64,000 nt of DNA from a virus (taxonomy: Duplodnaviria > Caudoviricetes): positions 56,755 to 120,754 of IMG/VR virus record IMGVR_UViG_3300028602_000007; one strand, written 5' to 3'. Of the stretch, positions 1,766-64,000 are shown piece by piece. Made by a program: the position numbers and the translations under genes. The notes beneath the pieces were generated by a model. It had not been told where the DNA came from, did no database searches, and saw only the letters and a list, made by a program, of their open reading frames with translations. The first letter of the stretch is position 1, and each line of letters begins with the position of its first letter.

Positions 1766-3460
1766 ATGGAAAAACAAATTAAAGAATTAAGAGAAACTTT
1801 AAAATATAAAAAAGAACATAAAATACGAATAATTAAAGAACTTAAAGAATTATCAATTAATCAACAATTAATTGATTATATCATGATTAAATATGATATA
1901 AAAGATTTAAATATTTCCCAACTATTATATGAAGTGTTAACTGATGGAACTAACTCTACTTGTGTTTGTGGAAGAAAAAAACAGTTCTATCGATATTCAT
2001 CAGGATATCACAAAACGTGTGGAAAAAAAGAATGCATAGACATAAGTAGAAATAAAAATTATAAAAAAACTATTAAAAATAAATATGGAGTAAACCATGC
2101 AACTCAACTAAAAACAACTAGAGATAAACAAAAACAAACAATGTTAAAAAAATATGGAGTCGATCATAATTCAAAAGGAGAATTAAGACAAAATTATACA
2201 AATACAATGTTAAAAAAATATGGAGTCGATTCGCCATTAAAAAATAAAGAAATATTAGAAAAAAGAAATAATACTGTTTTATCTAAATTTGGAACATTAG
2301 ATTTCATACAATCAAATAAAACAAAAGAAACTAATTTACAAAAATATGGATTTGAAAACGCAGCAAAAAATGAAAAAATTAAAGAAAAAATTAAAGAATC
2401 AAACACTAAAACCAGTATTAAAATCGCAGCAAAGAAATTACAAAAACACGATATCGAAATAATAAAGTATTATTCAGATTCTCAAAAATATGAACTACTT
2501 TGTAAAAAATGTGGAAATTCTTTAAGTTTACCAGGATGCTCAGTTAATACTAGATTAAGACAAAACGAATCGCCATGTTTGATTTGTAATCCATACGTTC
2601 CAGATAAATCAAGTTCAAATTTAGAAAAAGAAATTATTGCTTTTATTAAAGAAATATCAAACATACCAATTTTAACTAATTATAAACAAGCAATTAAAAA
2701 TATTGAATTTGATATTTATTTCCCTACTAAAAAAATTGCAATTGAAGTTAATGGAGTATATTGGCATTCTGAAATTTTTAAAGAAAAAAAATATCATTTT
2801 ACTAAATCACAATTAGCAATAAATAATGAAATTAAAGTATATCAAATATGGGAAGATGACTGGAATTTGAATAAAGAATTAATAAAAAATATGATTAGTA
2901 TTTGGTTAAATCATGACATTACAACTATTTATGCCAGAAATTGTAATATAAAAATAATTAATAATAAAACAGCAATAGACTTTTGTAATACTAATCATTT
3001 AAAACGTGGAAAATCGTCAACTATACAAATTGGATTATTTAATAAAACTGAATTAATTGGGGTTATGACATTTTTAAAAATAAAAAATATATGGCACTTA
3101 GATCGATTATGTTTTAAACAAAAAACTAAAGTGATTGGTGGAGCATCTAAGTTATTAAAATTTTTTATTAGAAACTACTCTCCCAATAAAATTTTAACAA
3201 AAGCCGATGTTGATTTAAGCCCAGATAAAAATAATAACGTTTATCAAAAATTAGGATTTAAAAATATTGGATGGACTCAGTCTTATAGTTGGGTAATAAA
3301 TGGAATTAGAGAAAACCGCCGTAAATTTACAAAAAAGAAATTAGTTAAACTTGGATATTCAACTAAACTTAGTGAATCTGAAATAATGAGTAATCTAAAA
3401 TATTATAGAACTTTCGAAAGTGGAAATTGGTCATATTGTTTAAACTCTACAAACTTATGA
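1766..3460 (+). CDS. Putative free-standing homing endonuclease (Zn ribbons, KKYGV repeats, Vsr/DUF559-like nuclease domain, C-terminal Hef-like/GNAT-like domain)
   Basis: CxC/CxxC motifs, repeated (K)KYGV units, EKEI...EFDIY...IAIEVNGVYWHS nuclease motif and IYARNC motif. Inserted directly downstream of the capsid gene. Confidence 0.7.
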   Translation: MEKQIKELRETLKYKKEHKIRIIKELKELSINQQLIDYIMIKYDIKDLNISQLLYEVLTDGTNSTCVCGRKKQFYRYSSGYHKTCGKKECIDISRNKNYKKTIKNKYGVNHATQLKTTRDKQKQTMLKKYGVDHNSKGELRQNYTNTMLKKYGVDSPLKNKEILEKRNNTVLSKFGTLDFIQSNKTKETNLQKYGFENAAKNEKIKEKIKESNTKTSIKIAAKKLQKHDIEIIKYYSDSQKYELLCKKCGNSLSLPGCSVNTRLRQNESPCLICNPYVPDKSSSNLEKEIIAFIKEISNIPILTNYKQAIKNIEFDIYFPTKKIAIEVNGVYWHSEIFKEKKYHFTKSQLAINNEIKVYQIWEDDWNLNKELIKNMISIWLNHDITTIYARNCNIKIINNKTAIDFCNTNHLKRGKSSTIQIGLFNKTELIGVMTFLKIKNIWHLDRLCFKQKTKVIGGASKLLKFFIRNYSPNKILTKADVDLSPDKNNNVYQKLGFKNIGWTQSYSWVINGIRENRRKFTKKKLVKLGYSTKLSESEIMSNLKYYRTFESGNWSYCLNSTNL

Positions 3461-48537: not shown

Positions 48538-51500
48538 TTGGTAACTTCAAATATATCATATAATAGTCTTACTAATAATTCAGCGAGTTTTAGTTTATTA
48601 AGAACTAATCCTAAATTAACATCAAATCTAAAAATAACAATAGATTCTAATGATAATTTATGGTTTAATTCAATTAATTCAACTTCAGAATTGGCACAAT
48701 CTAAATATAAAAATATTCCAATAAATGAAGATTCTAATCATGAAGTTAATGTATTTACCTTTTTTGATGATGGAAAAACTCCTAGTAAAATTTCATTTGC
48801 TATAGGTTCGACTATTACAACTGGGACTGTTGCTGATGATTTAAAAGACCAGTATGATTTTGATCTATATTCTAGTGGAGCAAAATATTTAAAATCAAAA
48901 GAGTATATTGAAAAATTTAGTTATTTAGCACCATTATACATAGATTCAATATTGCCAGAATATTTTATTATTTTAAAAATACCAGGTGCATCTAATTATA
49001 CAGTAGGAGAGTGGAAACAAAAAATATTAGATCCAACTTTTTCTAATTCAAAATTCGCAATTGATTTATTTAAAAAGGCTGAATTAGTAAAAGCAATAAA
49101 ATTGGGCGAAGATTCTAAAATTGGAAAATATATTAGGAATATTCAAAACAATCCAATGTTTAATAATAAACCATTATATGTTAATTTTAAAGAAAATAAG
49201 TATTCTGTATATAGAGGAATTTCTATTTCTACTGGAACATATGTAGAAATTCCAGAATTATTAAGTCCTACACTAAGATCATCTATTCCTCAATTAAAAT
49301 TAGAAAAATATATCACAGAAGGATTTGAAAGAAATAACTTAATTTATCCAAATATTCTAAATTTAGAATTCTTATTTAATGATGATAGCTCAGATACTTA
49401 TTCAATAAACAGATATATTGGATTTTATTGTAATTTAATTGATTTAGTTAAATTCAATATAGATATAGATTCAATGTATTTAAACATTGATAATGATAAT
49501 CCTTTACCTAATAAATTTAATGAAACTGATGAAATTTCATTAAATATTACAAACAAGGATGGTGTAGTATTAAGAGGAATTGGTATAGACTCTGATTTAT
49601 CTGAATTTTCTAAAATAATATCAAATTATAATAATATATTTTTTCCTTTCTTAAAAACAAAAGATGGAAATTTGCATTTTCCTAAAATACAAACATTAGA
49701 ACAATATAATAACACAATAAAATTTAAATTATCAGATAAATCATTTGATTTAGGTCAAACTTTTGGTGCAGGAAAACTCTTTTCACAAGAAACTGCAAAA
49801 CCTAGCAGTATTGATTCTAAATCAACTATCTTATTAACAATTGATACTATTCTAAATCATTTAGATACAATTAGGTTATATCATGAAAATGGATATACAT
49901 ATGATAAAACTGATAAATATGGAAAATATGATGATTTAATTTTTATTGATGATGAATTAAATACAATATTTCCAAATAATGAAAAATATATAATTGATTA
50001 TCCAGAAATAACAAATATTTTATTTAATACAAGCAATCCTAATTTAGGATCTACTGTTTTTTCTCCAAATTCACCAAGCTCTATAAATACACAGTATGTT
50101 TCTTCTATTAATAATACTAAATGGATATGGAATGGCTCTGAATATATTGAAGAAGTATTAGGATCTATCATTTATATTAATTTAAATACTGCTAATTCAA
50201 TTAGCAATAAAGTTACAGATATTAATCAGTTAGCATTAACTATAAAGAATATAATATCTAATTTAAAATCATCATATCTAACAGCATTAACGTATAATAA
50301 TAATATTTTTATACAAGTAAAAAATGTAGGAAATTATTATAATCAATTATCGGTTAGATTATTAGATTCTGCTTATTCTAGAATTAGTATTAACGGAAAG
50401 CATACACAGTCTATAGTTATCGCAGACGGAGGCTTTTCTAATACAAAATATGCAATTGTATCAATAGAAAATCTTGATAGGTTGTCGTCTAATCTAAATG
50501 ACTTAGTTGTTAAAACTACTAATTGGTCTAAAGTTGCTAGAATTAGTCATTGTTCTACTTTTTTAAATAAAACACAATTATGTGAATCTGATATCACAAC
50601 ATATTTAACTAATGGTACATTAATGTTATGTGATAATGAACCTATAGATGTAAAATATGATGTTATAGAGATACGGGAAATTTTTAAACCAACTTTAGGA
50701 ATATTGTCATTATTTGAAATTAAAGATATTGATTTTTATACTTATAGTTCACAATATTCTAAAATACCAGAGATTGATCTTTATCATTATTATTGGGTTC
50801 CACCAAATACTAAAATATTAAATTTTGATGAATATGTATATTCTTTAGTTGGTCAAGGAACCATTGAAGTAAATGGTATACAGTATTCAACGTCAAATAC
50901 ATCAACTATTTGGCAAAATATTACTGGATTACATAAATATACAATAATAGACGGAAATCCTCTTTTAGTAAAAAGTAACATAAAACCAAATACTGAAAGT
51001 GTATTAAGACAAGATGTTGCAAGATTAGATGAAGATAATAATTTATCTAATTTTACTGGCTTTTTTGCATTAGGCGCAGATCATAGCATTCCTAACCCAG
51101 ATCTGCCAACATACACGTATCGTGAAAAATATAAAACCAATAATTTACTTAGTGAATATCATGTTTATTTAGAAAATTTTAATAAAGAATTTTCAGTAGA
51201 AGGTAGAGTTGTTCCATATATTTCAAAATGGGGAATTTTAGATTCTTTTGATTCTCGGAATAATCCATATAGACTAAATTCCGATATTATGTTTGGTGAA
51301 AATAATTTTGGACCATCTCACCGAGAAACAAAACCTACTGCTGAAAAGTTAACACATGAATGGTTTTATATAGAATCTGATTTTGAATACACAGATAGTG
51401 AAGATTTATTAAAAAAGAACTATTGTTATTTTAATGAACCGTTTGATGTTAATAAGATGATATCTGATTCATCATATTTTTTGGAATATTTTACGTATAT

Positions 51501-54279
51501 TCCAAAATTTAATGGAAATGAAATAGATAGAACACAATTCAGATATTCTAAATTAAAATTAGATTCATTTACTAAACAATATTCAACTATTTTTAATGGA
51601 GTAAAAATAAATTTTGCAGAATTAGGAGAAAATGGTATTGAGAGGTCTAATACTAATAGATTTGATAATTATTTATTTAGTATTTTATTAAAACCAATCC
51701 CAGAAAAAACATCAATTAATCAAAATCCTATAAAATATAGAGTAATTGAAAACATTGATGCAAAGGCTATCGTATTATTGATTGAATTACCAATAGGATA
51801 TAAAGAAAAAATAAATGCTCGGTTATTAGAAGACACAATTTATAATACAATTTCTGGAAATACATTACAGTTCCCAGATAGAAGATTAGATCAAACAAAT
51901 ATTTTCATAGAAAGTTTAAGTTCTATGTCAAATATTAATTCTACTAAATTTCAAGTTGATTGGATCTATACAACTGAAAATAGTGTAAGTGGTGATCAAC
52001 TATTTACTGATATTATTAATTCGTCATATATCAGTTTTTCAAATCTAGATTTTTTAAATGGAACAGCGATAAACGGTAGAACAGGAGAGTCATTAACAAC
52101 TTATATTCCAAAGAATAATGAATTAGTATTAATACAGAAAGGTTCTGATTTAACTTCTCAAATTTTAATTGCTTTTGAAGAATCTACTGTGTATAAGATG
52201 GCATCAACTGGTGAATTAATTAGTGGAGCAAAAAACTTAGTTTCTACTGATACTCAATACTTATTAATAAATTTACCAAAAAATGGATATTTGCAAACGT
52301 CTGGATCTTTATTTAGAATAATAGAAGACTCTAATAATACAAATTCACAAATTGAATTAACTGCAAATAATGAATTAATTTTAAGTCTTTCTAATTCTGG
52401 TTTTTTATCAATGCTAGGTGATTATCGTCTTAACTTTAACGAAAATACTGTATCTAATTTAACATATAATTTTTTATATGCAGCAAAGGATAAAAAATAT
52501 AATACAACAAAATCTTCATATTCAACTATAAAATTAGCAATTGGAGTTGATTTAAGTTCAAATAGTTTTAATTCAAACTATTATTTGAATTTAAAACAAG
52601 TAAAGGGACTAAATATTAAAGAATTTAAATTTGAAGATTTTGTGAATGTTTTAAGTAATTCACATGATACCTTCGAAAATTCAGAAATGATAAATTCAAT
52701 AAAATCAAGTTCTGATCCTGAAATAAGTTCACCGCTTCCTTCTTTTTCTCCATTAATGTTTTTAAATACGTTAGGAGAGGTTTCGTTTTTATTAGGAAGT
52801 TCTGCTGATTTTAGCAAAACTGATAATGAAATCAAATTACAATTAATTAATCCTAAAATAACAAATGATGCAATATCTAAAGTTAATGGAAATCTTATAA
52901 TACTTGATAATACTTTGCACGATATTGTTGTTTTAAAATGTAATTTTACAGCTGATCCAATAACTGGTCCAAAATATTCAATTATTAAAGAAAATTATCC
53001 AACTCAAACTCCATCTTATTGGTTAAATGATAATGTTCAATTTCAATTATTTGGAGGTCGTAATTATTTTTCAAATTTATTTGAAAGTTTATCTCTTGCA
53101 AACTTTATATTATTATTAGAAAATAAATCAAATTTAATTTCTTGGGAAAGTTATGAAAATGGTTCATTATCTAATGATCAAAAAATTTCAATTCAAATTG
53201 AAGAAGGTGACCTTATTAATAAATCGACCATTGTTAAATTAGATACTGAGATAGTTAGCACCGAAAGCGCAACTTCACCAGGTGGAATAACTCATACTGA
53301 AAAAGAATCTACTAAGTATGAATTATTTAGATATTCTGGAGAATATGACATTATTACTAGACCAATTTCAGCATTTATTCAATATTGTAAGGTCGATGAT
53401 TATGTATTTAATGGAACTAACTCTTTTTTAAATACTAACGTTTCTAATTTCTTTACAATTCCAGAATTTTCATTTGTTAAATATTCTAATTTTAAAATTT
53501 TAGAATTAGAAAGTTCAGATAAATTTGAACCAGTTTATCCAATGATATATGAATCTCCTATTGATTTTGATAGCTTTTTTACTTTATCTAGTAGTTGGGA
53601 TTTTAATTATCATTATAAGTATTCATCTAAAAAGGATAAAACTAAGATTCCTGGAACAAATCGAATAGTTGAAGATTATTCATTTGTTTCTAAATTAATA
53701 AATTTACCAGACTCCTTTATTGTTGAATCTTTTAATTTTGAGAATTTAACAAATTCTGATTTTAACATAAAGATTTCAGATTTTTTAAAATTAGAAAATG
53801 AGGCTGGAATTATTGACTTTGTTGTTACAAACAAAACTAATAGTTTTGATTTTAAAATTAATTTTTCTAGAGCATTGGTGACAGCATTAACATATGATAT
53901 ATTAAATGGAGAAAATAGATTAAAATCAGAATTTGAAAAATTCTTTGTGGATCAAAATTCATTACCTATTATTTCAGACCAAACTGCATTAGGGGAATTA
54001 ACTTTAAATGAGTATATTTATGAATATTGTAAATATAATATATTACCATTATATGAGTTAATTGAATTAGATTTTTATGTTAAAGACAATCGAGATTTAT
54101 CTGAAAATGAAATAGTATTAGCTCAAGTTCCATATTCTTTATTAAGTAATCTTGGATATTCTAAACTAAAATCAATAAAAATAAATAATAAAAATTCAGA
54201 TATCATAACTGGCTCAATTTTAAAAAAATCAAGCACAGGAATTACTTTGGTACCAAAATTAAAAATTAAATATATCTAA
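48538..54279 (+). CDS. Very large putative virion protein (TTG start)
   Basis: 1913 aa in the late cluster; N-terminal LLRTNPKLTSN motif. Confidence 0.55.
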   Translation: MVTSNISYNSLTNNSASFSLLRTNPKLTSNLKITIDSNDNLWFNSINSTSELAQSKYKNIPINEDSNHEVNVFTFFDDGKTPSKISFAIGSTITTGTVADDLKDQYDFDLYSSGAKYLKSKEYIEKFSYLAPLYIDSILPEYFIILKIPGASNYTVGEWKQKILDPTFSNSKFAIDLFKKAELVKAIKLGEDSKIGKYIRNIQNNPMFNNKPLYVNFKENKYSVYRGISISTGTYVEIPELLSPTLRSSIPQLKLEKYITEGFERNNLIYPNILNLEFLFNDDSSDTYSINRYIGFYCNLIDLVKFNIDIDSMYLNIDNDNPLPNKFNETDEISLNITNKDGVVLRGIGIDSDLSEFSKIISNYNNIFFPFLKTKDGNLHFPKIQTLEQYNNTIKFKLSDKSFDLGQTFGAGKLFSQETAKPSSIDSKSTILLTIDTILNHLDTIRLYHENGYTYDKTDKYGKYDDLIFIDDELNTIFPNNEKYIIDYPEITNILFNTSNPNLGSTVFSPNSPSSINTQYVSSINNTKWIWNGSEYIEEVLGSIIYINLNTANSISNKVTDINQLALTIKNIISNLKSSYLTALTYNNNIFIQVKNVGNYYNQLSVRLLDSAYSRISINGKHTQSIVIADGGFSNTKYAIVSIENLDRLSSNLNDLVVKTTNWSKVARISHCSTFLNKTQLCESDITTYLTNGTLMLCDNEPIDVKYDVIEIREIFKPTLGILSLFEIKDIDFYTYSSQYSKIPEIDLYHYYWVPPNTKILNFDEYVYSLVGQGTIEVNGIQYSTSNTSTIWQNITGLHKYTIIDGNPLLVKSNIKPNTESVLRQDVARLDEDNNLSNFTGFFALGADHSIPNPDLPTYTYREKYKTNNLLSEYHVYLENFNKEFSVEGRVVPYISKWGILDSFDSRNNPYRLNSDIMFGENNFGPSHRETKPTAEKLTHEWFYIESDFEYTDSEDLLKKNYCYFNEPFDVNKMISDSSYFLEYFTYIPKFNGNEIDRTQFRYSKLKLDSFTKQYSTIFNGVKINFAELGENGIERSNTNRFDNYLFSILLKPIPEKTSINQNPIKYRVIENIDAKAIVLLIELPIGYKEKINARLLEDTIYNTISGNTLQFPDRRLDQTNIFIESLSSMSNINSTKFQVDWIYTTENSVSGDQLFTDIINSSYISFSNLDFLNGTAINGRTGESLTTYIPKNNELVLIQKGSDLTSQILIAFEESTVYKMASTGELISGAKNLVSTDTQYLLINLPKNGYLQTSGSLFRIIEDSNNTNSQIELTANNELILSLSNSGFLSMLGDYRLNFNENTVSNLTYNFLYAAKDKKYNTTKSSYSTIKLAIGVDLSSNSFNSNYYLNLKQVKGLNIKEFKFEDFVNVLSNSHDTFENSEMINSIKSSSDPEISSPLPSFSPLMFLNTLGEVSFLLGSSADFSKTDNEIKLQLINPKITNDAISKVNGNLIILDNTLHDIVVLKCNFTADPITGPKYSIIKENYPTQTPSYWLNDNVQFQLFGGRNYFSNLFESLSLANFILLLENKSNLISWESYENGSLSNDQKISIQIEEGDLINKSTIVKLDTEIVSTESATSPGGITHTEKESTKYELFRYSGEYDIITRPISAFIQYCKVDDYVFNGTNSFLNTNVSNFFTIPEFSFVKYSNFKILELESSDKFEPVYPMIYESPIDFDSFFTLSSSWDFNYHYKYSSKKDKTKIPGTNRIVEDYSFVSKLINLPDSFIVESFNFENLTNSDFNIKISDFLKLENEAGIIDFVVTNKTNSFDFKINFSRALVTALTYDILNGENRLKSEFEKFFVDQNSLPIISDQTALGELTLNEYIYEYCKYNILPLYELIELDFYVKDNRDLSENEIVLAQVPYSLLSNLGYSKLKSIKINNKNSDIITGSILKKSSTGITLVPKLKIKYI

Positions 54280-57197
54280 TGGCCATTAATATTAACGTAA
54301 AAGAAATATATGCAACTGATAATCAATTATCATTAGCAAATAAATTAAATTTTAATTTTAATCAATTTTTAAGCTTAGGCGTTGGCGAAAAGGGTGATAC
54401 TGGCCAACAGGGTCCAACTGGTCCAATTGGACCTCGCGGAAGAACTGGTGCAAATGGACAAAATGGATCAACTATTTGGTCAGGTGATCCAACTGTGTAT
54501 ATTGATTTAGGTTCAGCTTCTCCTGAGAATTCAAGCGTTGGTGATTATTATATTGGATCTATTTCTACTGGGTCAGTTACATATGATGGAATCTATAAAA
54601 AAGAAGAAGACTCGACCTGGTCAGTTATTACAGACTTTTCAACTATTTTTAGAACTGCGTTAGATGTTTCAGGCGGAGAACTTTTTCCTTGGAGAGTTGG
54701 AGTTAATACACAAACTCCTCCAGCTAGAATAATAATACCTATAAATAATTCACAAGGAACTGATAGAAAAACAGTCATTCAATTATCACAACCTTCTGAT
54801 TATTATGAAACTTATACTCCAAATTGGCAATTAAATACCACAACTTCGCAAAATGCACAAAATATTATTTTTAATTTTGATGTTAATACTGCAAAAAAAA
54901 TAATAACTAGCACATCTGCTGATTCTAATGGATATACTGTTAAATTAACAGAAGATAGATTAGGTTCAAATATTTCTCAATTAAATAATTCATTCCCATA
55001 TACTTCATTATTATCATTATATTCATTTTATGAAGAAACTGATGCTAGCACCATACCTGACCATTTAGTTGATACAATTGGGTATAGACATCAATTTGAA
55101 TTAGGATCAATTGATAATATCACCGAATATTTACATTCTAGCGATGCAAATGATAATTATGTAATAAGTCCAACCTATCAAAACTTAAGAGTTAGAAAAT
55201 ATAGAAAAGAAGCTAGTGATATTCCAGGAAAAAGTGCAATTTTTTCTGATTTTATTTTGCATTCAAATGATTCAGTTAATGATCCTGCACTAAACTCTAA
55301 GTTTGAGTGGTCTATTAATAAAAAAACAGCAAGTTCATATGATAATAATACAATTATTAAATTTGCATTATCTGGATCTACCTTAGAAGGTAGTTCAAGT
55401 TCAACTGGATTAACTGGATTATCAGTTGATGGTTTGCATTTATTACTTTCACACCCATCATCAACTTATAAATTTGCAATAGGTTTTGATCCAAATAACT
55501 ATACAAATTTAACAAAAAATATTATTGCTAAATCAGATGGAACAATAGACACAATTAAACTTGATGAAATTGGATTAAATTTAAAGTCTGGAACAAATAT
55601 ACTTAATATTAGCGGAACAGGATTAACTTCACAAACAGATACTGATTTAAATATTTTTGCAACAGATGAAGATAATTTTATTAATCTTGGATCTAGTGAT
55701 ACCTCTATTGCAATAAAAATAAAAGGAGATAAATTAGCATCAGGTATTCCATTTGAAACTTCAACTGGAGCAACTCCAGCAAATAGTAGTTCAGATTCAA
55801 ATACGTTAGATGAATACCAAGAAGGAACTTTTACTCCTGCTGTATATTATGGAACTCTTCCTACTCCAGCGACTAGCGTATTAACTAATAATAATCCAAC
55901 TGTATCGAATACATATGGATCATTTGTAAAAATTGGAAAAATTGTTACATTTTCATTAACCTTTACACTTTCAGATTGGACAGTTGTTACTACAACTGGT
56001 AGATCTAGTGGAACACATTTAATCGATCCATATTTTGCATCAGGTGCTTCTGATATTGATGTTGGAAATTTATCAAATTCTCCAGATGGAGAATGGACGA
56101 CTGAACAACATGAATTAGGGAATGAATCATATCCAATAATAATTAGAGATATTCCAGATCATTGGCCTACTCCAAATAATGCAGAAGAAATTATATTTAA
56201 TGTGTCAATAAAACCTAAAATATATAATGGGTATGGAATGAGACCATTTAATATGGATTATAGTTGGACGAATAGTGGAACTAGTTCATCTAGTGAACCT
56301 TGGAGACCGATTGCTCCATCTACTGTTAAAGCTAGATTTGATACATATGAAGATGGGACAACTAAACCACAATTAAAATTATATGGATATCGTGAAGATA
56401 CTACTTCTGGTAGATTGTTTAGTACATTTGAAAGTTTAGTATCAATTTATGATTTTCTTAATTATGTTCATCCTAGCGATCCAACTGATGGAAATACTGT
56501 TGTTATTACTATAAATGGAACATATGAAAGTAATCATCAAACTGCACAAGATGCGTATCCAATAGGAGTAACAACAACTACTTCAACATCTACTACTACA
56601 ACTACAACAGTTTATAGTGGACCAGCTACAACAACTACTACTTCAACATCTACTACTACAACTGCTGCGCCAACCACCTCTACAACAACAACAACTGCTA
56701 GTCCATATGGCAGTGAATTAATGACTAATTCTGGTGCACCAACTTTAACTGATTGGATTAATATTATTAATCCAGATGGATTAGGAGATACTTGGTCAGG
56801 CAATAGAAATTATGAAGACTATTCAATTATTTCTGGATTATATAGTTTCTCAGAAAATGCACAACAAGTAGTTAGACAAACTGCAAAAACTGGACCAATT
56901 GCAATATTATCAAATAGGTTTGCAGGAGATTCATCTAAACGATATAGATTACAATTCAAATATCGAGCATCTCGTGAATTATCAGTATTACAAGTTATAA
57001 ATCTAGCAACTCAATCATATACTACGATTGATGATGTTAATGCAGTAACTGGATCAATTTATGGTAGTGCAGATATTGAATTTGTATCAAGTGCATCTGG
57101 ATTTACTCATATTTTATTTTATATGAAAACCGATGGAGCTAGTGGATCAACTCTTTGGTTCCAAATTGATGAAGTCAGCTTAAAGGAAATTTTATAA
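54279..57197 (+). CDS. Tail fibre / receptor-binding-like protein with short collagen segment, Thr-rich linker and C-terminal CBM-like domain
   Basis: GEKGDTGQQGPTGPIGPRG, LDEYQEGTFTP...FVKIGKIV fibre motif, TTTTSTSTTT linker, YRLQFKYR...IDEVSLKE. Confidence 0.65.
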   Translation: MAININVKEIYATDNQLSLANKLNFNFNQFLSLGVGEKGDTGQQGPTGPIGPRGRTGANGQNGSTIWSGDPTVYIDLGSASPENSSVGDYYIGSISTGSVTYDGIYKKEEDSTWSVITDFSTIFRTALDVSGGELFPWRVGVNTQTPPARIIIPINNSQGTDRKTVIQLSQPSDYYETYTPNWQLNTTTSQNAQNIIFNFDVNTAKKIITSTSADSNGYTVKLTEDRLGSNISQLNNSFPYTSLLSLYSFYEETDASTIPDHLVDTIGYRHQFELGSIDNITEYLHSSDANDNYVISPTYQNLRVRKYRKEASDIPGKSAIFSDFILHSNDSVNDPALNSKFEWSINKKTASSYDNNTIIKFALSGSTLEGSSSSTGLTGLSVDGLHLLLSHPSSTYKFAIGFDPNNYTNLTKNIIAKSDGTIDTIKLDEIGLNLKSGTNILNISGTGLTSQTDTDLNIFATDEDNFINLGSSDTSIAIKIKGDKLASGIPFETSTGATPANSSSDSNTLDEYQEGTFTPAVYYGTLPTPATSVLTNNNPTVSNTYGSFVKIGKIVTFSLTFTLSDWTVVTTTGRSSGTHLIDPYFASGASDIDVGNLSNSPDGEWTTEQHELGNESYPIIIRDIPDHWPTPNNAEEIIFNVSIKPKIYNGYGMRPFNMDYSWTNSGTSSSSEPWRPIAPSTVKARFDTYEDGTTKPQLKLYGYREDTTSGRLFSTFESLVSIYDFLNYVHPSDPTDGNTVVITINGTYESNHQTAQDAYPIGVTTTTSTSTTTTTTVYSGPATTTTTSTSTTTTAAPTTSTTTTTASPYGSELMTNSGAPTLTDWINIINPDGLGDTWSGNRNYEDYSIISGLYSFSENAQQVVRQTAKTGPIAILSNRFAGDSSKRYRLQFKYRASRELSVLQVINLATQSYTTIDDVNAVTGSIYGSADIEFVSSASGFTHILFYMKTDGASGSTLWFQIDEVSLKEIL

Positions 57198-57214
57198 TAA
57201 CCAAATGACTTTAC

Positions 57215-57222
57215 TATAAATA
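57215..57222 (+). promoter_or_regulatory. T4-type late promoter TATAAATA
   Basis: Exact match 16 nt upstream of the ATG at 57239; a gp55-like sigma is encoded in the window. Confidence 0.6.
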
Positions 57223-57238
57223 ATAAAAAGTAAAGTTA

Positions 57239-59326
57239 ATGAGCAATATTTGTTATAAAATATCACCAGATCCAAATAAAAATTCTATATCTTATAGTAA
57301 GAATTATAGAATTTTTACAACTGGTGAACCTGTTAGAAAAGCTATTAAATTTAATAAAGATAATATATTTGATGAGTATTTAGATATAGGAGATTTAGAT
57401 CCTTTAAATATTATTAGAAAAATTAGATATTCAACAAATAGATTAGATTGGTCATTATGGTATGATTTTTCAAAATCTAATTTAACCGAATTAGAATCTT
57501 TATTATTTGACGAATCTGATATTTTTTTCGAAGTAAAATACATATATGATAATTCTACATTTGATCAATTATCTACTCCATTATCAATTAATTGGATTAA
57601 ACTTTTTTTAGAAACTTCTCAACAACAAGGTGAAAATTATATACCAACAGTTCAATGTTCTGAAGAACAATGTCCAATGTTAATATCTGAAGAATTAGCA
57701 CTATTTAAACCATATGAAGCTGCTCCAGCTATTCAAATTGCACATGAACTAAGTTTGAAAACAAATAAAATATTTGGGCATGATGTAATTTATTTTAAAA
57801 CAGATTCAGATAGAGATGGTGGAGACTTTATTTTTAAGGAATGGACATTATTTAAAACTACTGCTAGAAAATGTATTAAAGCATTAGTTCCAAATAATAA
57901 ATTTCCAGATAATGTTCCACAATTTACTGAGTTTGGTGTAGATTTTGAAATGCCATTTGAGTTGCATATTGATAATATTTATTTTCAACAAATGTTTGGT
58001 AGAAATTCGCAGCCTAGAAAAAGAGATTATTTATATTTTCCATTGCTTAACCGAATGTATGAAATACAGGGTTCATATTTATATAGAGGGTTTATGATGG
58101 AACCTTTATATTGGAAAATACAATTAACAAAATTTCATCCAAATATTGATATGTATATGAATTCTGAAAATAGAACATTTTTAGATAATTTAATAACAAC
58201 ATCTAATGATTTATTTAGAAATGAACAAGCTGCACAAGAATTAGATGCATTAGATAAGCAACAAACAAAAACAATTTCTACTAAATATGATGAAACTCGA
58301 CAAAATTTACATTATGATTTAGTTGTTAAAATACTAGATACAACATATAATTATTCTCCATTAATTGAATATTATTATGATATGAATTCAGTTAAACCGA
58401 CTTTAACTGAATATACTTTAAGTGAATTTTCGAATCCAAACGAAAGCAAAACACAGAAAATATCAGCAAGTGAACCATACGAAATTATTGCATATGAGAG
58501 TAGTGATATTTTTAATGCTTGGCAAAATAGAGAACTGTCGATTGCTGATTTAAACGTTTCGTCTAATTACCCAATTGGTGAAAAAATACCAATAAAAACA
58601 AATGGGCCAAAAGACTCATATTCTCCATTTGGAAAATATGTACTTATTGAAGGTTATAAAAACTTAGGATTTACTACTAGAAAAAACATAGTTTCTTCTA
58701 GTGATTCTGTGCTATTTTTACAAGAAGCAAATGCGATAACTTATAAAAAATTAGCAAATACTGCAACTTTGCCAAATATGACATTTTGTAATTTATTTAA
58801 TTTAAATAGAGGAAGTCAAACTATAACTTTTTTAAAAGGATATGATTCTTTTGATGAATCTGGAATAATCATAAAAGGAACTGTTTCTGATAATTCGGGC
58901 GGAACTCCATCTATTATAATTTATATAACAATAAATGAGGTTACTTATACTTTTAATGTTGGAAATATTAATTATGCTAAATGGTATGCATTAGTTATTC
59001 CAATTTCTGCACAATATGGCCAAATACAAGTTAATTTATATTCATTTACTGAAGATTTAGCAAATGCTAAAAACTTTAACGGAATTAATTCAATTTATCG
59101 TGAAACTATTAAACCTGGCCAATTTTCATTTGAAACAAATTCTCCATATTGTATACCTAGTGCAAATTATCTACTATCAAATATTAGATTATTTAATACT
59201 ATGATACAATTAGAAGATCACGAGTTTGTAATTAGCCAATTATTTGTTAGAGATGAATCTACTTTAGCGATAATAGATAATGCAAGATACCGATTAAATG
59301 CGCCATTTATCGCAATAAATAGGTAA
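57239..59326 (+). CDS. Neck/head-closure protein with T4 gp14-like domain and extra domains
   Basis: FGHDVIYF...FGVDFE...PRKRDYLYFPLLNRMYEI resembles gp14 P.EGDLIYFP..N.LFEI. Confidence 0.65.
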   Translation: MSNICYKISPDPNKNSISYSKNYRIFTTGEPVRKAIKFNKDNIFDEYLDIGDLDPLNIIRKIRYSTNRLDWSLWYDFSKSNLTELESLLFDESDIFFEVKYIYDNSTFDQLSTPLSINWIKLFLETSQQQGENYIPTVQCSEEQCPMLISEELALFKPYEAAPAIQIAHELSLKTNKIFGHDVIYFKTDSDRDGGDFIFKEWTLFKTTARKCIKALVPNNKFPDNVPQFTEFGVDFEMPFELHIDNIYFQQMFGRNSQPRKRDYLYFPLLNRMYEIQGSYLYRGFMMEPLYWKIQLTKFHPNIDMYMNSENRTFLDNLITTSNDLFRNEQAAQELDALDKQQTKTISTKYDETRQNLHYDLVVKILDTTYNYSPLIEYYYDMNSVKPTLTEYTLSEFSNPNESKTQKISASEPYEIIAYESSDIFNAWQNRELSIADLNVSSNYPIGEKIPIKTNGPKDSYSPFGKYVLIEGYKNLGFTTRKNIVSSSDSVLFLQEANAITYKKLANTATLPNMTFCNLFNLNRGSQTITFLKGYDSFDESGIIIKGTVSDNSGGTPSIIIYITINEVTYTFNVGNINYAKWYALVIPISAQYGQIQVNLYSFTEDLANAKNFNGINSIYRETIKPGQFSFETNSPYCIPSANYLLSNIRLFNTMIQLEDHEFVISQLFVRDESTLAIIDNARYRLNAPFIAINR

Positions 59327-59348
59327 ACTTGAATAAATAATGTAAGAT

Positions 59349-60698
59349 ATGTATAAAGATTTAAATAAAAGAAAATTATTTGATAATGTTGAATTAGGTT
59401 TTGAATTTGAATTTTTTTCTCCATTAACAAGAAAGGAACTTTCTGAAAAATTAGAAAGAGTATTAAAGAAAAAAGTAACTTGGTCAAATTCATATCATGG
59501 AAAATCTCAAGTTCAACCTAATATTTTTAAATTAGAACCAGATTATTCGGGCGGTATAAAAACCAATGAATTAATTACTGGAGTAATGCCATATAATGAA
59601 GCAATTCATGTATTACTTAAGGTTTTTAATTTTATTAATGAAAATGGATTTACTAATGATAGAACTGGGTTACATATTAATATTTCATTCAATGAAGTAG
59701 ACTTAAATTTATCTGAGCGTTTACAAAATTTAAATATGTTTAAATATATTTTAAATTTAGATGAAAAGAAGATATTTGATTTATGGCCATCTGCTAAATC
59801 TAGAATTCAAAAAATTTATAAAAATTCAGTTTTAAACATTTATCCCAAGAATAAATTTATTGCAGAAACTAGTATTGAATATGCAAATCCAGATAGTCCA
59901 TTAGATTTTAATTTGCCATATTCTAAATATTTTGGTTTAAATTTTACAAAATTACCTAATAATTATTTAGAAGTAAGATATGCTGGCGGAAAAAATTATG
60001 AAACCAAGAAAAAAGAGACAATTGAATTAATTAATTATATTGCCGAAAGTTTATATGAAACTTTACAAAACAATAAATTTTATTCAATTAATGAGCGTAG
60101 AAAAATTAGTGAATTTATGAAGAATCGAAAAGATTTGATCTTATCGATTAAAACATTTGAAAATTTTAAAAGAAATTTTCCAAATATCCAACTATTAGTT
60201 GATTTGAAAAATGACGAGCGTATAATCGAATCAAATTATTCAAATTTTAGAGATTCGTTATTTTCACTAATTACTACTGGTAATTTAAAATCAGGCTTTG
60301 TAAATTATGATACTTCTATTAAAAAGATACAAGTTAGAGAAGCTAAATTAGTTGAATGCTTTTCATTATCTAATATTGATTTCGTTAAATGTTATATTGA
60401 AGGAGAATTAAATGAATGCAGATTAGTTGATTGTAAAGTGAGATCTTCTAGATTATCAAACTTAACTATTTTAGGAGGAAATGATATAAGATATTCATAT
60501 ATAAAAGAATGCTCTTTTATGAATGGTGGAATTAATAAAATACAATCTACATTTATTAAAAATAATCCAGATCAAATAATATATGCTGAACTAAAGGAAT
60601 GTATTATAAGATCAGGAACAGTCGATCTAAATAGTAAAGTTGATAATAAAACTGAATTTATTCAGCATACTTCTACTTCTATGAATCAAGAAAAATAA
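59349..60698 (+). CDS. Putative amidoligase (COOH-NH2 ligase fold) with C-terminal beta-helix-like repeats
   Basis: GFEFEF, LEPDYS, ELITG, TGLHINIS, KYFGLN, LEVRYAGG. Confidence 0.75.
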   Translation: MYKDLNKRKLFDNVELGFEFEFFSPLTRKELSEKLERVLKKKVTWSNSYHGKSQVQPNIFKLEPDYSGGIKTNELITGVMPYNEAIHVLLKVFNFINENGFTNDRTGLHINISFNEVDLNLSERLQNLNMFKYILNLDEKKIFDLWPSAKSRIQKIYKNSVLNIYPKNKFIAETSIEYANPDSPLDFNLPYSKYFGLNFTKLPNNYLEVRYAGGKNYETKKKETIELINYIAESLYETLQNNKFYSINERRKISEFMKNRKDLILSIKTFENFKRNFPNIQLLVDLKNDERIIESNYSNFRDSLFSLITTGNLKSGFVNYDTSIKKIQVREAKLVECFSLSNIDFVKCYIEGELNECRLVDCKVRSSRLSNLTILGGNDIRYSYIKECSFMNGGINKIQSTFIKNNPDQIIYAELKECIIRSGTVDLNSKVDNKTEFIQHTSTSMNQEK

Positions 60699-60709
60699 TA
60701 AAAAATATT

Positions 60710-62314
60710 GTGTCTGTAACAGTAAAACTAAGTTCAATAAAATCCATAGATAATAGAAGCATTTCATCAATTACTGAAATTTCTAATTTTAATTTTCAAA
60801 ATTTAACAAGTTCAATTAGTGAATTTTTAAATTCTATAAATTATGTACAAGGAGATGAAGTTAGTATTGATATAGATGATATTTCAGCAGATTCTTTAAA
60901 ACTTAGAGAAAGTTTAATTGTTTATGGTAATAAAGTAGGAACAGTTTATCCAGAAAACATTAAATTATTAACAAATGGCTCAATTTTAGCTAAAAATATT
61001 AAAGTTGATGATGTTTCATCAGCAAAACGGATTAGGCTTAGAGTTTTTGGAGAATTACCAATAACTGGTATTCCTGGAGAAATGGTATACATACAAGCAC
61101 AAGGAACTAGAATTGAAGGTATATATGTTTGGTTAAATAGTACTGGCTGGACTTTATTATATGGTATAGGAACGGGTGCAGGATCTGGTGAAATTTCAGA
61201 AATAAGTTCAATATGTAGACAATCAGTTTTACAAGAAGTTTCAGCAGATAATGTAAGCTCAGATAATTCATTAATATCATCTAATTTATTTACAGTTCCT
61301 GCTCCAATCGCAACTGATTTTCCAATTCTTTATATTAATGGATTGCAAACACAAATTGGAAATGGTTCAAAATTAACATCTGCTTATTTTAGCAAAGATG
61401 GTGGAACTACTGCAAGTATAATTGGTGAATTAGATTCAACTGATTTACTATATTTTAATCCAACAATCGCAGAATATGAATTAGATACAGATGACACTAT
61501 CACATTAAAATATTTAACAAGTGATCCATATTGTGCACAGTCTGGATATTATTGTAATACTATAAGTGTTTCTAGTGGAAATACTGAATTATCTCCATTT
61601 TCAATTAATATTATTACTACTCCAAGTACAACTGGACCATTGAGAGTTTGTCAAATTCCAAATCCAATAAGCAATGGTTTATATACTATGCCAGATAACT
61701 ATGATTTATCAAATACGATATCTTCATATTCAATTTTAGATATAAATTCTATATTTACATCAATTATTATTAGATTTACATTATCAAGATCATTGTCAGA
61801 AACAGATTTTGATAATATTAAAATATTTAATGAAGTTTCTGGTGTTATTTCAGATGTAACCATAATGTCTGGAATATATTCTCCAGATTTTTCAAATAAG
61901 TATATTTATGCTCAAGTAATTGAGCCTGGTTCATTTTATATAGTTCAAGGAGTTATTCCTACTACAACGGCAACTTCAACAACTACTACAACAACCCTTG
62001 CCTGTCCAATTAATAATATAAGTTATTCATTAGAAATTGGACCAAATCCAACTCATGTGTTATTTAGTGGAACACCAGAAGGTCCACATACTTTAGAATT
62101 TGTTGATCAACACGGAATGGTATTTAATATAACTGGTTTAATCGAAGATGATATTACTTTACCTTGGACATTAGATTTAAATAATGTAAAATTATCAAGC
62201 GTATCAACGATAATTGGAGTTTATACATTTACTTATGATACTTCTTGTGTATATACTGTAGAAATTCCGTTATCTGCTATTACTACAACTACTACAACAA
62301 CACTTGCAAGTTAA
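60710..62314 (+). CDS. Putative virion protein with Thr-rich tracts (GTG start)
   Basis: PTTTATSTTTTTT and C-terminal TTTTTTTLAS. Confidence 0.6.
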   Translation: MSVTVKLSSIKSIDNRSISSITEISNFNFQNLTSSISEFLNSINYVQGDEVSIDIDDISADSLKLRESLIVYGNKVGTVYPENIKLLTNGSILAKNIKVDDVSSAKRIRLRVFGELPITGIPGEMVYIQAQGTRIEGIYVWLNSTGWTLLYGIGTGAGSGEISEISSICRQSVLQEVSADNVSSDNSLISSNLFTVPAPIATDFPILYINGLQTQIGNGSKLTSAYFSKDGGTTASIIGELDSTDLLYFNPTIAEYELDTDDTITLKYLTSDPYCAQSGYYCNTISVSSGNTELSPFSINIITTPSTTGPLRVCQIPNPISNGLYTMPDNYDLSNTISSYSILDINSIFTSIIIRFTLSRSLSETDFDNIKIFNEVSGVISDVTIMSGIYSPDFSNKYIYAQVIEPGSFYIVQGVIPTTTATSTTTTTTLACPINNISYSLEIGPNPTHVLFSGTPEGPHTLEFVDQHGMVFNITGLIEDDITLPWTLDLNNVKLSSVSTIIGVYTFTYDTSCVYTVEIPLSAITTTTTTTLAS

Positions 62315-62346
62315 ATCTTAATTTTTAATAATGATATAACATTATT

Positions 62347-63318
62347 ATGTTAAACAATAAGATTATTTTTATGTGCGCACAGCCAGATGTGCCATATTTT
62401 CATTGGCAAGTTGAAGTTATGCTTGTTAATTTCATTAAAAATGGAATTAACCCAAATTGGATCGAAGTTTTATGGGCAATTGATCCAGGTAAAGATAGGT
62501 CAATTGAATTACAAAAATTAATTAATAAATATCCATATGTTAGATTTTTTAGTTATCAAAAAACGATTAATAATAATTATGGATATATTCCAATATTGAG
62601 ACCTGATATAATTGAACAACATTTTAAAAGATTTCCAAATTTACGAGGAGAAGTTATATTTTACCATGATTCTGACATAATTTTTAGAAAATTACCAAAT
62701 TTTGATTCTATGTATAATGATATGTATTGGTATTTAAGCGATACTATTTCATATATCGGAGCAGATTACATAAAATCTAAGTCTAAGAATTTGTTTATTG
62801 ATATGTGTAATATCGCGAATATTGATCCTAAACAGGTTGAAGATAATCAATTAAATTCAGGTGGTGCTCAATATTTAATGAAAGGTTTAACTTCTACTTA
62901 TTGGAAAGAAGTTAAAGATACTGCATTGTCTTTATATAAATATATGTCAGATTTAGAAAATCTTGAACGTAAAAAATTATCAAATATAGAATTAAAAACA
63001 TATAATCCTATTCAAAAATGGTGTGCTGATATGTGGGCAGTTTTATGGATTGCTATTAAAAATGGTGCTAATATAAGAATTTCTTCAGAATTATCATTTA
63101 GTTGGGGAACTTCTAGCTTAGATGAATATTATTTACATAATATTATGCATAATGCTGGAGTAACAAAAGATCATGTTAATTTATTTTTTAAAGGTGATTT
63201 TATTAACAAAAATCCATTTACTTTTGATTTTTCTAATATTGATACTAATTCTGCATCATTTAAATATATTGAAGCTATTAACTATGTAAATGAACATAGT
63301 AAAAAGATTGATAAATAA
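62347..63318 (+). CDS. GT-A fold glycosyltransferase resembling plant peptide O-glycosyltransferases (HPAT/SERGT-like)
   Basis: YFHWQ, YIPILRP, YHDSDIIF (DxD), GGAQY, WCADMWA, HNAG. Confidence 0.72.
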   Translation: MLNNKIIFMCAQPDVPYFHWQVEVMLVNFIKNGINPNWIEVLWAIDPGKDRSIELQKLINKYPYVRFFSYQKTINNNYGYIPILRPDIIEQHFKRFPNLRGEVIFYHDSDIIFRKLPNFDSMYNDMYWYLSDTISYIGADYIKSKSKNLFIDMCNIANIDPKQVEDNQLNSGGAQYLMKGLTSTYWKEVKDTALSLYKYMSDLENLERKKLSNIELKTYNPIQKWCADMWAVLWIAIKNGANIRISSELSFSWGTSSLDEYYLHNIMHNAGVTKDHVNLFFKGDFINKNPFTFDFSNIDTNSASFKYIEAINYVNEHSKKIDK

Positions 63319-63351
63319 GATAAATAATATCATATAAAAATATCAGTTTAA

Positions 63352-64000
63352 ATGTCTAATAGATTACCAATAAAACAAGTCGATTTAAGTAAAACTATAG
63401 AAAATGAGTCATTAACAAAAGTTTTAGTTTTAGATGGTGTTACTGGTAAAGTCTATTGGACAACTTCAATTGAGGCTGGTTCAGGAGGAAGCGGATCAAG
63501 CGGAACTTCAGGATCAAGCGGAACTTCCGGAATAGCTGGAGCAGATGGAAGCTCAGGAACTTCAGGATCAAGTGGAACTTCAGGAATAGCTGGAGCAGAT
63601 GGAACCTCAGGAACTTCAGGATCAAGTGGAACTTCAGGAATAGCTGGAGCAGATGGAACCTCAGGAACAGATGGAGCAGATGGAACTTCAGGATCAAGTG
63701 GTTCATCTGGAGTAGACGGAACGGCATTTGGAACCTCAGGAACAGATGGAAGCTCAGGAACTTCAGGATCAAGTGGAACTTCAGGAACAGATGGAGCAGA
63801 TGGAACTTCAGGATCAAGTGGTTCATCTGGAGTAGACGGAACGGCATTTGGAACCTCAGGAACAGATGGAACCTCAGGAACTTCAGGATCAAGTGGAACC
63901 TCAGGAACAGATGGAGCAGATGGAACTTCAGGATCAAGTGGTTCATCTGGAGTAGACGGAACGGCATTTGGAACCTCAGGAACAGATGGAAGCTCAGGAA
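63352..64000 (+). CDS. Collagen-like Gly-Ser/Thr repeat protein, runs off the window (not in the ORF track)
   Basis: ATG at 63352: MSNRLPIKQ...EAGSGGSGSSGTSGSSGTSGIAGADG..., open to the window end; ATAAATA twice upstream. Confidence 0.85.
   Translation, partial: MSNRLPIKQVDLSKTIENESLTKVLVLDGVTGKVYWTTSIEAGSGGSGSSGTSGSSGTSGIAGADGSSGTSGSSGTSGIAGADGTSGTSGSSGTSGIAGADGTSGTDGADGTSGSSGSSGVDGTAFGTSGTDGSSGTSGSSGTSGTDGADGTSGSSGSSGVDGTAFGTSGTDGTSGTSGSSGTSGTDGADGTSGSSGSSGVDGTAFGTSGTDGSSG
63481..64000 (+). repeat. Hierarchical 9-bp / 54-bp / 120-bp repeats encoding G-X-Y triplets
   Basis: The 60-mers starting at 63661, 63781 and 63901 are identical, giving a 120-bp period. Confidence 0.95.

Follow-up and report, generated by a model that had tools for sequence, protein, structure and literature searches.

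Poly-threonine tracts paired with a phage glycosyltransferase: a candidate system for O-glycosylation of virion proteins

Introduction

What does a glycosyltransferase act upon when a phage carries its gene among those of its own particle? The question is raised by open reading frame (ORF) 62347-63318 in the last 64 kb (64,000 nt, hereafter the window) of a 120,754-bp IMG/VR virus contig (IMGVR_UViG_3300028602_000007), where a putative glycosyltransferase gene follows the gene of a protein with poly-Thr tracts, here called the partner, and precedes a Ser/Thr-rich collagen-like gene. An initial annotation of this DNA had proposed that the phage glycosylates Ser/Thr tracts of its own fibres, and the enzyme motifs, the Thr tracts and the collagen-like ORF that it named were all found where it had placed them. 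Given the comparisons with uncultured phages, cultured phages and bacterial genomes presented below, we consider it likely that the enzyme O-glycosylates poly-Thr (Thr/Ser) tracts of the phage's own particle proteins. The poly-Thr part of the initial proposal is the one best supported by comparative evidence, while its collagen part is not established.

Results and discussion

A conserved family with a predicted GT-A fold

Comparative evidence, together with a structural model, supports the view that ORF 62347-63318 encodes a DxD-type glycosyltransferase of fold A (GT-A). At the sequence level, the protein (which includes ...VIFYHDSDIIF...) had no match in Pfam, NCBIfam or the Protein Data Bank (PDB), and matched phrog_4417, a family of “unknown function” (E 4.6e-61, enzyme residues 8-315 on profile positions 3-292 of 293). 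The family comprises ~2,900 protein clusters in a large protein collection, at least 595 IMG/VR copies and 77 phage genome records, the latter found when the window enzyme was searched by tblastn in 50,697 phage records. AlphaFold2, given an alignment of 49 sequences, predicted a single globular domain (predicted local distance difference test, pLDDT, 97.1; predicted template modelling score, pTM, 0.93), with no membrane segment or hydrophobic N-terminus and a first strand starting at residue 7.

When compared with solved structures by Foldseek, this model gave 145 matches at E <= 1e-3, those listed being GT-A enzymes, with E-values of 3e-6 to 1e-4 and template modelling (TM) scores of ~0.45 for the set from glycosyltransferase families GT8 and GT24. 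VIA-align 2, an exhaustive structural aligner, returned Z-scores of 14.8 for the Skp1 alpha-galactosyltransferase AgtA, 14.6 for glycogenin, 14.5 for UGGT, 14.3 for LgtC, 13.6 for WbbM (residues 279-574) and 13.2 for GlyE of the pneumococcal serine-rich-adhesin pathway. The retaining GT8/GT24 group ranked first in both searches, with 211-250 residues aligned at 6-12% sequence identity, so that the predicted likeness is one of structural neighbourhood, not of family membership. The best matches are not the DNA or lipopolysaccharide (LPS) glycosyltransferases that would undercut a protein acceptor: several of the nearest solved folds are those of enzymes for proteins or protein-bound glycans, and no DNA glucosyltransferase is among the structural matches listed.

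Sequence profiles did not place the protein in a known enzyme family. Pfam Glyco_transf_8, the profile of CAZy GT8, gave no hit at E <= 1 for the window protein and 49 relatives, or at E <= 0.01 for 94 more. A family profile searched against the PDB returned only spurious matches, to TALE repeats in Hax3 of Xanthomonas (11 weak repeats with a summed E of 8e-6); they map to enzyme residues ~139-169 (window 62761-62853, the “...NSGGAQ” segment) and were judged a repeat artefact.

Evolutionarily, the putative catalytic residues are strongly constrained. Three family alignments (A1, A2 and A3, of 49, 107 and 94 sequences) cover >140 representatives at 32-60% identity to the query, and D108 and D110 of the DSD motif, which follows strand 103-106 in the model, are invariant in all three. 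Around it, the 49-sequence alignment displays an invariant W20 and a nearly invariant Q21 (>=90%) in YFHWQ, an invariant Y80 opening YIPILRP, and in WCADMW an invariant W225 and M229 followed by a nearly invariant W230, while R85 and P86 are nearly invariant in the wider alignments only. G173, Q175, W225, F251, H268, G271, F280 and K282 are likewise invariant or nearly so in the 49, 107 and 94 representatives; across all >140, no substitution is seen at D108, D110, G173, W225 or K282, and H268 is nearly invariant. This conservation of DxD, His, Lys and other columns argues for a working active site. By analogy with GT8, whose C-terminal motif is H-x-x-G-x-x-K-P-W, the segment around H268 would provide a second metal ligand and a diphosphate-binding Lys: “NSGGAQ” and “HNAG...F.K” of the enzyme resemble what we take to be their GT8 counterparts, “FNSGV” and “HxxGxxKPW”.

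The enzyme gene is paired with poly-Thr genes in uncultured phages

To evaluate the surroundings of the family in nature, 80 IMG/VR loci around enzyme relatives were compared with 227 control loci, 116 of them drawn with poly-Ala and 111 with poly-Asn codon patterns. Some contamination affects the poly-Asn controls, in which a one-base shift turns AAC repeats into ACA (Thr) codons; they were pooled anyway, which is conservative. Overall, a Thr-rich tract ORF was detected in 68 of the 80 enzyme loci, and of the 77 loci whose DNA extends upstream of the enzyme gene, 59 have a poly-Thr ORF of the same orientation directly before it, compared with 1 of 75 that have one directly after it. ORFs of >=150 aa with a run of six or more Thr (T6+) were found in 61/80 enzyme loci vs. 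10/227 controls (2/116 poly-Ala, 8/111 poly-Asn; Fisher p = 1e-36), and in the reverse direction the enzyme was found in 7 of 118 loci chosen for a poly-Thr codon pattern, always adjacent, vs. 0/227 controls (p = 5e-4), these p-values being upper bounds on the strength of the evidence because the 80 loci are phylogenetically clumped (three single-linkage groups at 50% identity) and independence is overstated.

The pairing recurs in 30 of 33 enzyme clusters defined at 70% identity, and masking of the Thr tracts leaves 12 BLAST families among the 59 adjacent carriers. The initial annotation had staked its proposal on homologues co-occurring with Ser/Thr-rich genes; for Thr-tract genes this co-occurrence is both strong and directional. 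Within our own contig, T6+ runs occur in only 3 of the 92 stop-to-stop ORFs of >=150 aa, two of these three lying within 8 kb upstream of the enzyme gene, and ~2 Mb of control phage loci hold 10 such ORFs among 2,646. Given this rarity, the Thr tracts beside the enzyme gene are not background.

The tag comes and goes with the enzyme in cultured phages

Cultured phages extend this pattern to enzymes only ~32% identical to that of the window, with the poly-Thr run carried as a tag on quite different proteins. In Enterococcus phage phiFL1A both the major capsid protein and the major tail protein end in it (...GETTTTTKPTTTTTKPTTTTTTTQG and ...GTTTTTSTTTTTTSSTTTTTTTQASSK), in Lactobacillus iLp84 it is found on the capsid protein, a tail protein and a 126-aa protein (40% Ser/Thr), in Clostridium phiCTP1 on the tail tube, in Enterococcus vipetofem on the major tail protein, in Staphylococcus SA2 on the major tail protein and on an overlapping poly-Thr ORF, and in Chryseobacterium MA9V-3 on the protein upstream, while Lactobacillus SAC12B has an Ig-domain protein ending in (PTTVKP/PTTVAP)x7. 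The enzyme gene stands directly after the tagged gene or a few genes away in these phages. Prophages of Bacillaceae, Staphylococcus and Clostridium in GTDB genomes are paired in the same way, with tagged ORFs of ~400, 105 and 210 aa, that of ~210 aa just upstream of the enzyme gene.

Among related capsid and tail proteins, presence of the tag follows presence of the enzyme. The enzyme-positive phages phiFL1A and R3.3 both have a poly-Thr tail on their tail-tube protein, and phiFL1A also on its major capsid protein; tail-tube homologues 51-60% identical in Streptococcus phages Javan47, Javan505 and Javan235 and Lactobacillus phages Silenus and phiJL-1 end without a Thr run, and the capsid motif EIPEGVVEATI is followed by poly-Thr in phiFL1A only, when compared with the capsids of Javan47 and Javan505. 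A family-profile search of these five complete genomes (Javan47, Javan505, Javan235, Silenus and phiJL-1) detected no enzyme, with 4/4 positive controls found.

Two ORFs of these phages may be C-terminal extensions produced by frameshifting or hidden by mis-annotation. In vipetofem (L005 5671-5826, + strand), an ORF with three poly-Thr runs comes right after the major head gene, at a place annotated in the record as a hypothetical gene on the minus strand, and in SA2 (L432 8643-8921, + strand) the poly-Thr ORF and the last part of the major tail gene overlap.

Candidate acceptors in the window

In the window, the likely acceptors would be the two tracts of the 534-aa partner and, probably, the Thr/Ser linker of a 972-aa fibre-like protein (Table 1). 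The partner consists of a beta-rich body, a poly-Thr linker, a 95-aa FN3/Ig-like bead and a C-terminal T7 tail. Its AlphaFold2 model is only moderate overall (pLDDT 64), with values of 70-90 for residues 170-417 and 431-525 and <50 for residues 418-430 and 526-534, the linkers being predicted as disordered; fold matches are weak (ZU5/GAIN-like, Z ~9; bead against FN3 and the C-terminal domain of type IX secretion, T9SS-CTD, Z 6-7). This model suggests a beta-sandwich bead held between disordered Thr linkers. In L006-L018 and L434-L436, a homologue of the partner stands before the enzyme gene, with from several to ~40 tracts of the T6-AAP type; in their most expanded form these proteins resemble beads on a string, with domains of 65-100 aa split by up to ~40 (TTTTTT-AAP)n tracts, an architecture that is mucin-like.

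The 972-aa protein comprises an N-terminal collagen-like stretch (aa 36-63), a long shaft, the Thr/Ser linker and a C-terminal domain of ~165 aa, with weak Pfam Collagen and Mucin matches. Among its homologues, Thr tracts are found in L011 and in neither L007 nor L016.

Fusions of the enzyme, and a cellular context that hints at peptide acceptors

Many family members have another glycosyltransferase domain fused to their C-terminal end (Glyco_transf_7C in 13 of 94 representatives, GT2 in six, also GT6 and GT25), which suggests an initiating enzyme whose product is then extended. Other fusions involve a methyltransferase or a radical-SAM/SPASM domain. In GTDB bacterial genomes, standalone forms occur in phage-like contexts with tags in 23/36 loci. 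The fused forms, from Chitinophaga, Pedobacter, Sphingobacterium and kin, have a different setting: a Peptidase_C39 ATP-binding cassette (ABC) exporter lies within 6 kb in 28-30 of 44 loci, a radical-SAM enzyme in six and a Core-2/I-branching enzyme in four. This context is that of exported, leader-cleaved and modified peptides, an independent hint that the acceptors are peptides, not DNA or polysaccharide.

The fused Bacteroidota loci (among L444-L523) are of interest in their own right, as they look like an undescribed glycopeptide gene cluster, similar to those of ribosomally synthesised and post-translationally modified peptides (RiPPs). In Chitinophaga silvisoli, for example (L449 1925-10617), a GT-A domain fused to a Glyco_transf_7C-type domain stands beside a C39 exporter.

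It is tempting to speculate that a single GT-A family acts on peptide hydroxyls throughout, on poly-Thr mucin-like stalks in phages, on exported glycopeptides in Bacteroidota and, in the clade of the window, perhaps on collagen fibres too, a wider reading that we hold to be doubtful. If it were true, glycosylated virions would be found widely, in phages that infect Firmicutes, Bacteroidota and aquatic bacteria, and the triple helix of the clade's giant Pro-free Gly-Ser/Thr collagen might be stabilised as in Riftia cuticle collagen.

Proposed mechanism and points against it

We infer that the Thr/Ser tracts are the acceptors, that their carriers are exposed on the virion and that transfer takes place in the cytoplasm. 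In the mechanism we propose, a soluble cytoplasmic, metal-dependent GT-A enzyme would use a nucleotide-sugar, probably of the host, and place the first sugar on tract hydroxyls before or during particle assembly. The glycosylated tracts would then become stiff, extended and protease-resistant mucin-like stalks, which would hold the FN3/Ig-like bead of the partner and the distal domain of the fibre off the particle.

Several observations weigh against this mechanism. The acceptor is assigned by the association of genes, and the exposure of the 534-aa and 972-aa proteins on the virion is deduced from weak fold and PHROG matches. Depending on the criterion, 12-19 of the 80 enzyme loci are without a poly-Thr ORF, and 111 of the 118 poly-Thr-pattern loci are without the enzyme family in the DNA fetched, which makes the tag neither necessary nor exclusive. 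Downstream of ten enzyme-less poly-Thr ORFs there was no Pfam glycosyltransferase, so poly-Thr is not always accompanied by a recognisable transferase. The third T6+ run of our contig belongs to a GT2 enzyme rather than to a virion protein and forms a linker there, which means that poly-Thr can be a plain linker. The phylogenetic clumping of the 80 loci counts here as well. In the cellular genomes, poly-Thr tags accompany only 2 of the 44 fused loci, so that acceptor specificity is not fixed across the family. Finally, no gene for nucleotide-sugar synthesis turned up, although no search was aimed at such genes.

Other targets for the enzyme

Some of these points would fit an enzyme that modifies DNA bases, a host envelope glycan (teichoic acid, LPS or capsule) or a small molecule, with the poly-Thr stretches as unmodified linkers that merely travel with it. 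The near folds include LgtC and WbbM, which act on lipooligosaccharide and O-antigen, and phage glycosyltransferases are classically DNA- or serotype-modifying (PMC12619734). The poly-Thr linker inside a cytoplasmic GT2 enzyme and the many poly-Thr loci without the enzyme (111/118) could be read in the same way. The joint gain and loss of tag and enzyme on homologous capsid and tail proteins, the non-homology of the carriers and the strict order of carrier then enzyme (59/77 vs. 1/75) are difficult to reconcile with such a target. Moreover, the enzyme is found in strictly lytic phages and in phages of Gram-positive and Bacteroidota hosts, among which a host-glycan enzyme would not be expected to be shared, and its cellular homologues stand by peptide exporters, not in polysaccharide loci. 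The T4 DNA glucosyltransferases have a GT-B fold, whereas the present enzyme is predicted to be GT-A. Overall, we regard a target other than the phage's own proteins as improbable.

A second alternative keeps a protein acceptor but moves it downstream, to the long Ser/Thr-rich collagen-like fibre, where a triple helix without Pro would gain stability from sugars on Thr, poly-Thr being a secondary acceptor. The collagen-like ORF starts 33 nt after the enzyme gene (Pfam Collagen, E 6e-22), and its visible part has 53 Gly-X-Y triplets, free of Pro and with Ser or Thr at 69% of X/Y positions. Collagen-like ORFs that neighbour the enzyme gene in the close clade go up to 887 triplets and likewise contain no Pro, with a median of 83% Ser/Thr at X/Y, compared with 11% in thirteen collagen-like ORFs of control loci. 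Two distant loci without an adjacent poly-Thr ORF (L044 and L052) hold such a collagen-like gene ~7 kb upstream. There is precedent in other organisms, as galactosyl-Thr stabilises the cuticle collagen of Riftia and Bacillus BclA carries O-linked sugars on its GPT repeats.

Across the wider family, this association is not maintained: a collagen-like gene lies directly downstream in 7 of 75 enzyme loci, all close relatives from the window's own clade, and anywhere in 15 of 80, while the reverse search from G-(S/T)-(S/T)x7 loci of IMG/VR found the enzyme in 1 of the 119 listed (p = 0.34 vs. controls), with limited power because the loci are short and the genes long. Of the collagen link in the initial annotation, adjacency and composition are there, but the link is clade-specific and fails in the reverse direction. 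Glycosylation of the collagen-like fibre by this enzyme thus appears as a minority possibility, and its being the main acceptor as a long shot. As a separate observation, Pro-free Gly-(Ser/Thr)-(Ser/Thr) collagen-like proteins are common in uncultured phages (at least 119 loci, L524-L642), almost all of those listed having no enzyme nearby.

That the protein might be a non-catalytic structural or assembly factor keeping a glycosyltransferase fold, as its place among capsid and tail genes and the phiFL2B record (which mislabels the product “major tail protein”) could suggest, is scarcely credible given DxD, His and Lys residues that are invariant or nearly so over the whole family and the fusions to other catalytic glycosyltransferase domains.

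Genomic setting

The contig has a GC content of ~26% and a CheckV completeness of 47%, from which a genome of ~250 kb is probable. The window encodes a T4-type major head protein, a tail sheath and GroEL, and from 36.5 kb to its end it is an unbroken + strand block of large structural genes. Within this tightly packed operon, the enzyme gene is the sixth of seven whose order is kept in relatives at 40-76% identity: a 1913-aa protein, the 972-aa fibre-like protein, a 695-aa protein, a 449-aa amidoligase-like protein, the partner, the enzyme and the collagen-like protein. A promoter and terminator scan of 54-64 kb gave signals not above those of shuffled sequences, and operon boundaries could not be called. 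In bacterial assemblies, the nearest relative (enzyme 63% identical) is on a 254-kb contig binned with an uncultured Bacteroidetes metagenome-assembled genome (MAG), a binning that gives no more than a hint of the host.

Table 1. Features of the window discussed in the text, with positions counted from its first letter.
Feature	Position	Strand	Remarks
Putative GT-A glycosyltransferase, standalone, 323 aa	62347-63318	+	phrog_4417, AlphaFold2, VIA-align, Foldseek
DSD (D108-S109-D110), putative DxD motif for metal and nucleotide-sugar binding	62668-62676	+	Alignment and model
H268-N-A-G271...F280-x-K282, C-terminal His/Lys segment	63148-63192	+	H268 and G271 invariant or nearly so; F280 and K282 invariant
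534-aa partner, predicted main acceptor	60710-62314	+	Immediately upstream of the enzyme gene
Poly-Thr linker TTTATSTTTTTT	61961-61996	+	In the partner
T7 run, residues 525-531	62282-62302	+	C-terminal in the partner
972-aa fibre-like protein, predicted second acceptor	54279-57197	+	Tail-fibre PHROG matches at aa 28-223
Mucin-like tract TTTTSTSTTTTTT-VYSGPA-TTTTTSTSTTTT-AAP-TTSTTTTT	56571-56702	+	In the 972-aa ORF, between shaft and distal domain
Ser/Thr-rich, Pro-free collagen-like protein (GTS/GSS/GAD/GTD triplets)	63352-64000	+	Cut by contig end; possible acceptor only
449-aa amidoligase-like protein	59349-60698	+	Pfam Amidoligase_2 above cut-off, E 6e-6
564-aa homing or HNH endonuclease	1766-3460	+	phrog_3339, E 8e-90; directly after the major head protein gene

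Some neighbouring features deserve mention. The 449-aa protein, which lies inside the structural operon and occupies the same position in relatives (58-76% identity), could be another protein-modifying enzyme. The contig stops inside the collagen-like gene, probably at an assembly break caused by repeats, and the corresponding genes of relatives reach ~8.7 kb. Outside the window, at ~50,000-53,700 of the contig (L443 3025-6669, minus strand), a second glycosylation-type cluster adjoins the baseplate hub gene; it includes a 484-aa protein of two domains, the C-terminal one a GT2 domain (E 2e-14), with the linker STTTTTTT, next to a DUF6395 protein in which an SGGIDS motif is present, and an ORF of 276 aa that belongs to no known family. 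The GT2 protein could extend the glycan.

Implications

If enzyme and tag work together as proposed, self-glycosylation would be common among phages. Among the enzyme-positive records are phages of Enterococcus, Staphylococcus and Lactobacillus that matter to therapy and the dairy industry, whether as agents or as a threat, and for these such a modification would bear on particle stability, immune recognition, adsorption and adherence to mucus. A poly-Thr tag accompanied by this gene would also provide a sequence rule for recognizing glycosylated virion proteins, and the enzyme-tag pair might serve as a portable tool for O-glycosylation in the cytoplasm.

Comparison with known systems

A full-text literature search found no publication describing the phrog_4417 family or its pairing with poly-Thr proteins, and likenesses were sought among better characterized systems. 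The initial annotation had called the enzyme plant-type, after families GT95 and GT96. Plant peptidyl-Ser galactosyltransferase (GT96) and hydroxyproline arabinosyltransferase (HPAT, GT95) have the motifs Y..WQ / Y...N(K/R)P / D.D / W..EMY, and this motif order is real and conserved in the phage family; the family label itself is unproven, since the nearest solved folds are GT8/GT24. Membership in Pfam HPAT (PF23452) did not hold up, with no match for the window protein, one of 49 representatives at E 0.23 and 0/94 at E <= 0.01. The only link to the plant enzymes is a language-model search of the ESM Atlas, in which 22 of the 30 nearest Pfam-labelled clusters carry PF23452 on some members (10-58% of members in the two rows listed); it gives no alignment and no E-value, and we treat it as a lead. 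HPAT and DUF7164 models had no match in the whole contig, a result of little weight as the controls were also silent. Functionally, the plant and algal enzymes HPAT (GT95) and SGT1/SERGT1 (GT96) and the phage enzyme would all place the first sugar on hydroxyl-rich, extended protein tracts. However, the former have a type II Golgi membrane anchor, which the phage enzyme lacks, and act on hydroxyproline (Hyp) or Ser-Hyp4, where Thr would be the acceptor here.

The best structural matches, at Z 13-15, are to GT8/GT24 enzymes whose acceptors are proteins or the glycans bound to them (glycogenin, Skp1 AgtA, UGGT, XXYLT1 and GlyE). These have soluble catalytic domains, as the phage enzyme is predicted to have, and may share with it the arrangement of DxD and C-terminal His/Lys, but differ from it in sequence (6-12% identity and no Pfam Glyco_transf_8 match), with TM-scores of ~0.45.

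In terms of the acceptor, a close likeness of the relatives' partners, where (TTTTTT-AAP)n tracts separate globular beads of 65-100 aa, is to mucin-type O-glycosylation and to the Thr/Pro linkers of cellulases: the Pro/Thr/Ser (PTS) domains of mucins and O-glycosylated enzyme linkers share this architecture of tracts between beads. The phage enzyme is not a GT27, and would act in the bacterial cytoplasm without a secretory pathway. Chlorella virus PBCV-1 A64R also resembles it as a virus-encoded GT-A enzyme for the virus's own capsid protein (structural match, Z 10.6); this match is weaker than those to GT8/GT24, the virus is eukaryotic, and the acceptor is, by the title of the entry, the major capsid protein, without a poly-Thr tag.

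To our knowledge, mycobacteriophages are the only phages whose particles have been shown to be glycosylated, and their virion glycosylation is the nearest known system. According to the accounts given in PMC12619734 and PMC12363180 of Freeman et al. (2023, Cell Host Microbe 31:1216), mycobacteriophages Che8, Corndog and Myrna use their own glycosyltransferases to modify capsid and tail-tube subunits at their C-termini, and this glycosylation shields the virions from antibodies. The poly-Thr tags of the enzyme-positive Firmicutes phages are likewise C-terminal and likewise on capsid and tail-tube proteins. The enzymes are different, with no Mycobacterium phage among the 77 records positive by tblastn with the window enzyme. 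The present system, known from its sequences, differs further in its hosts (Firmicutes, Bacteroidota and uncultured aquatic bacteria) and in bringing with it a recognizable poly-Thr tag or linker.

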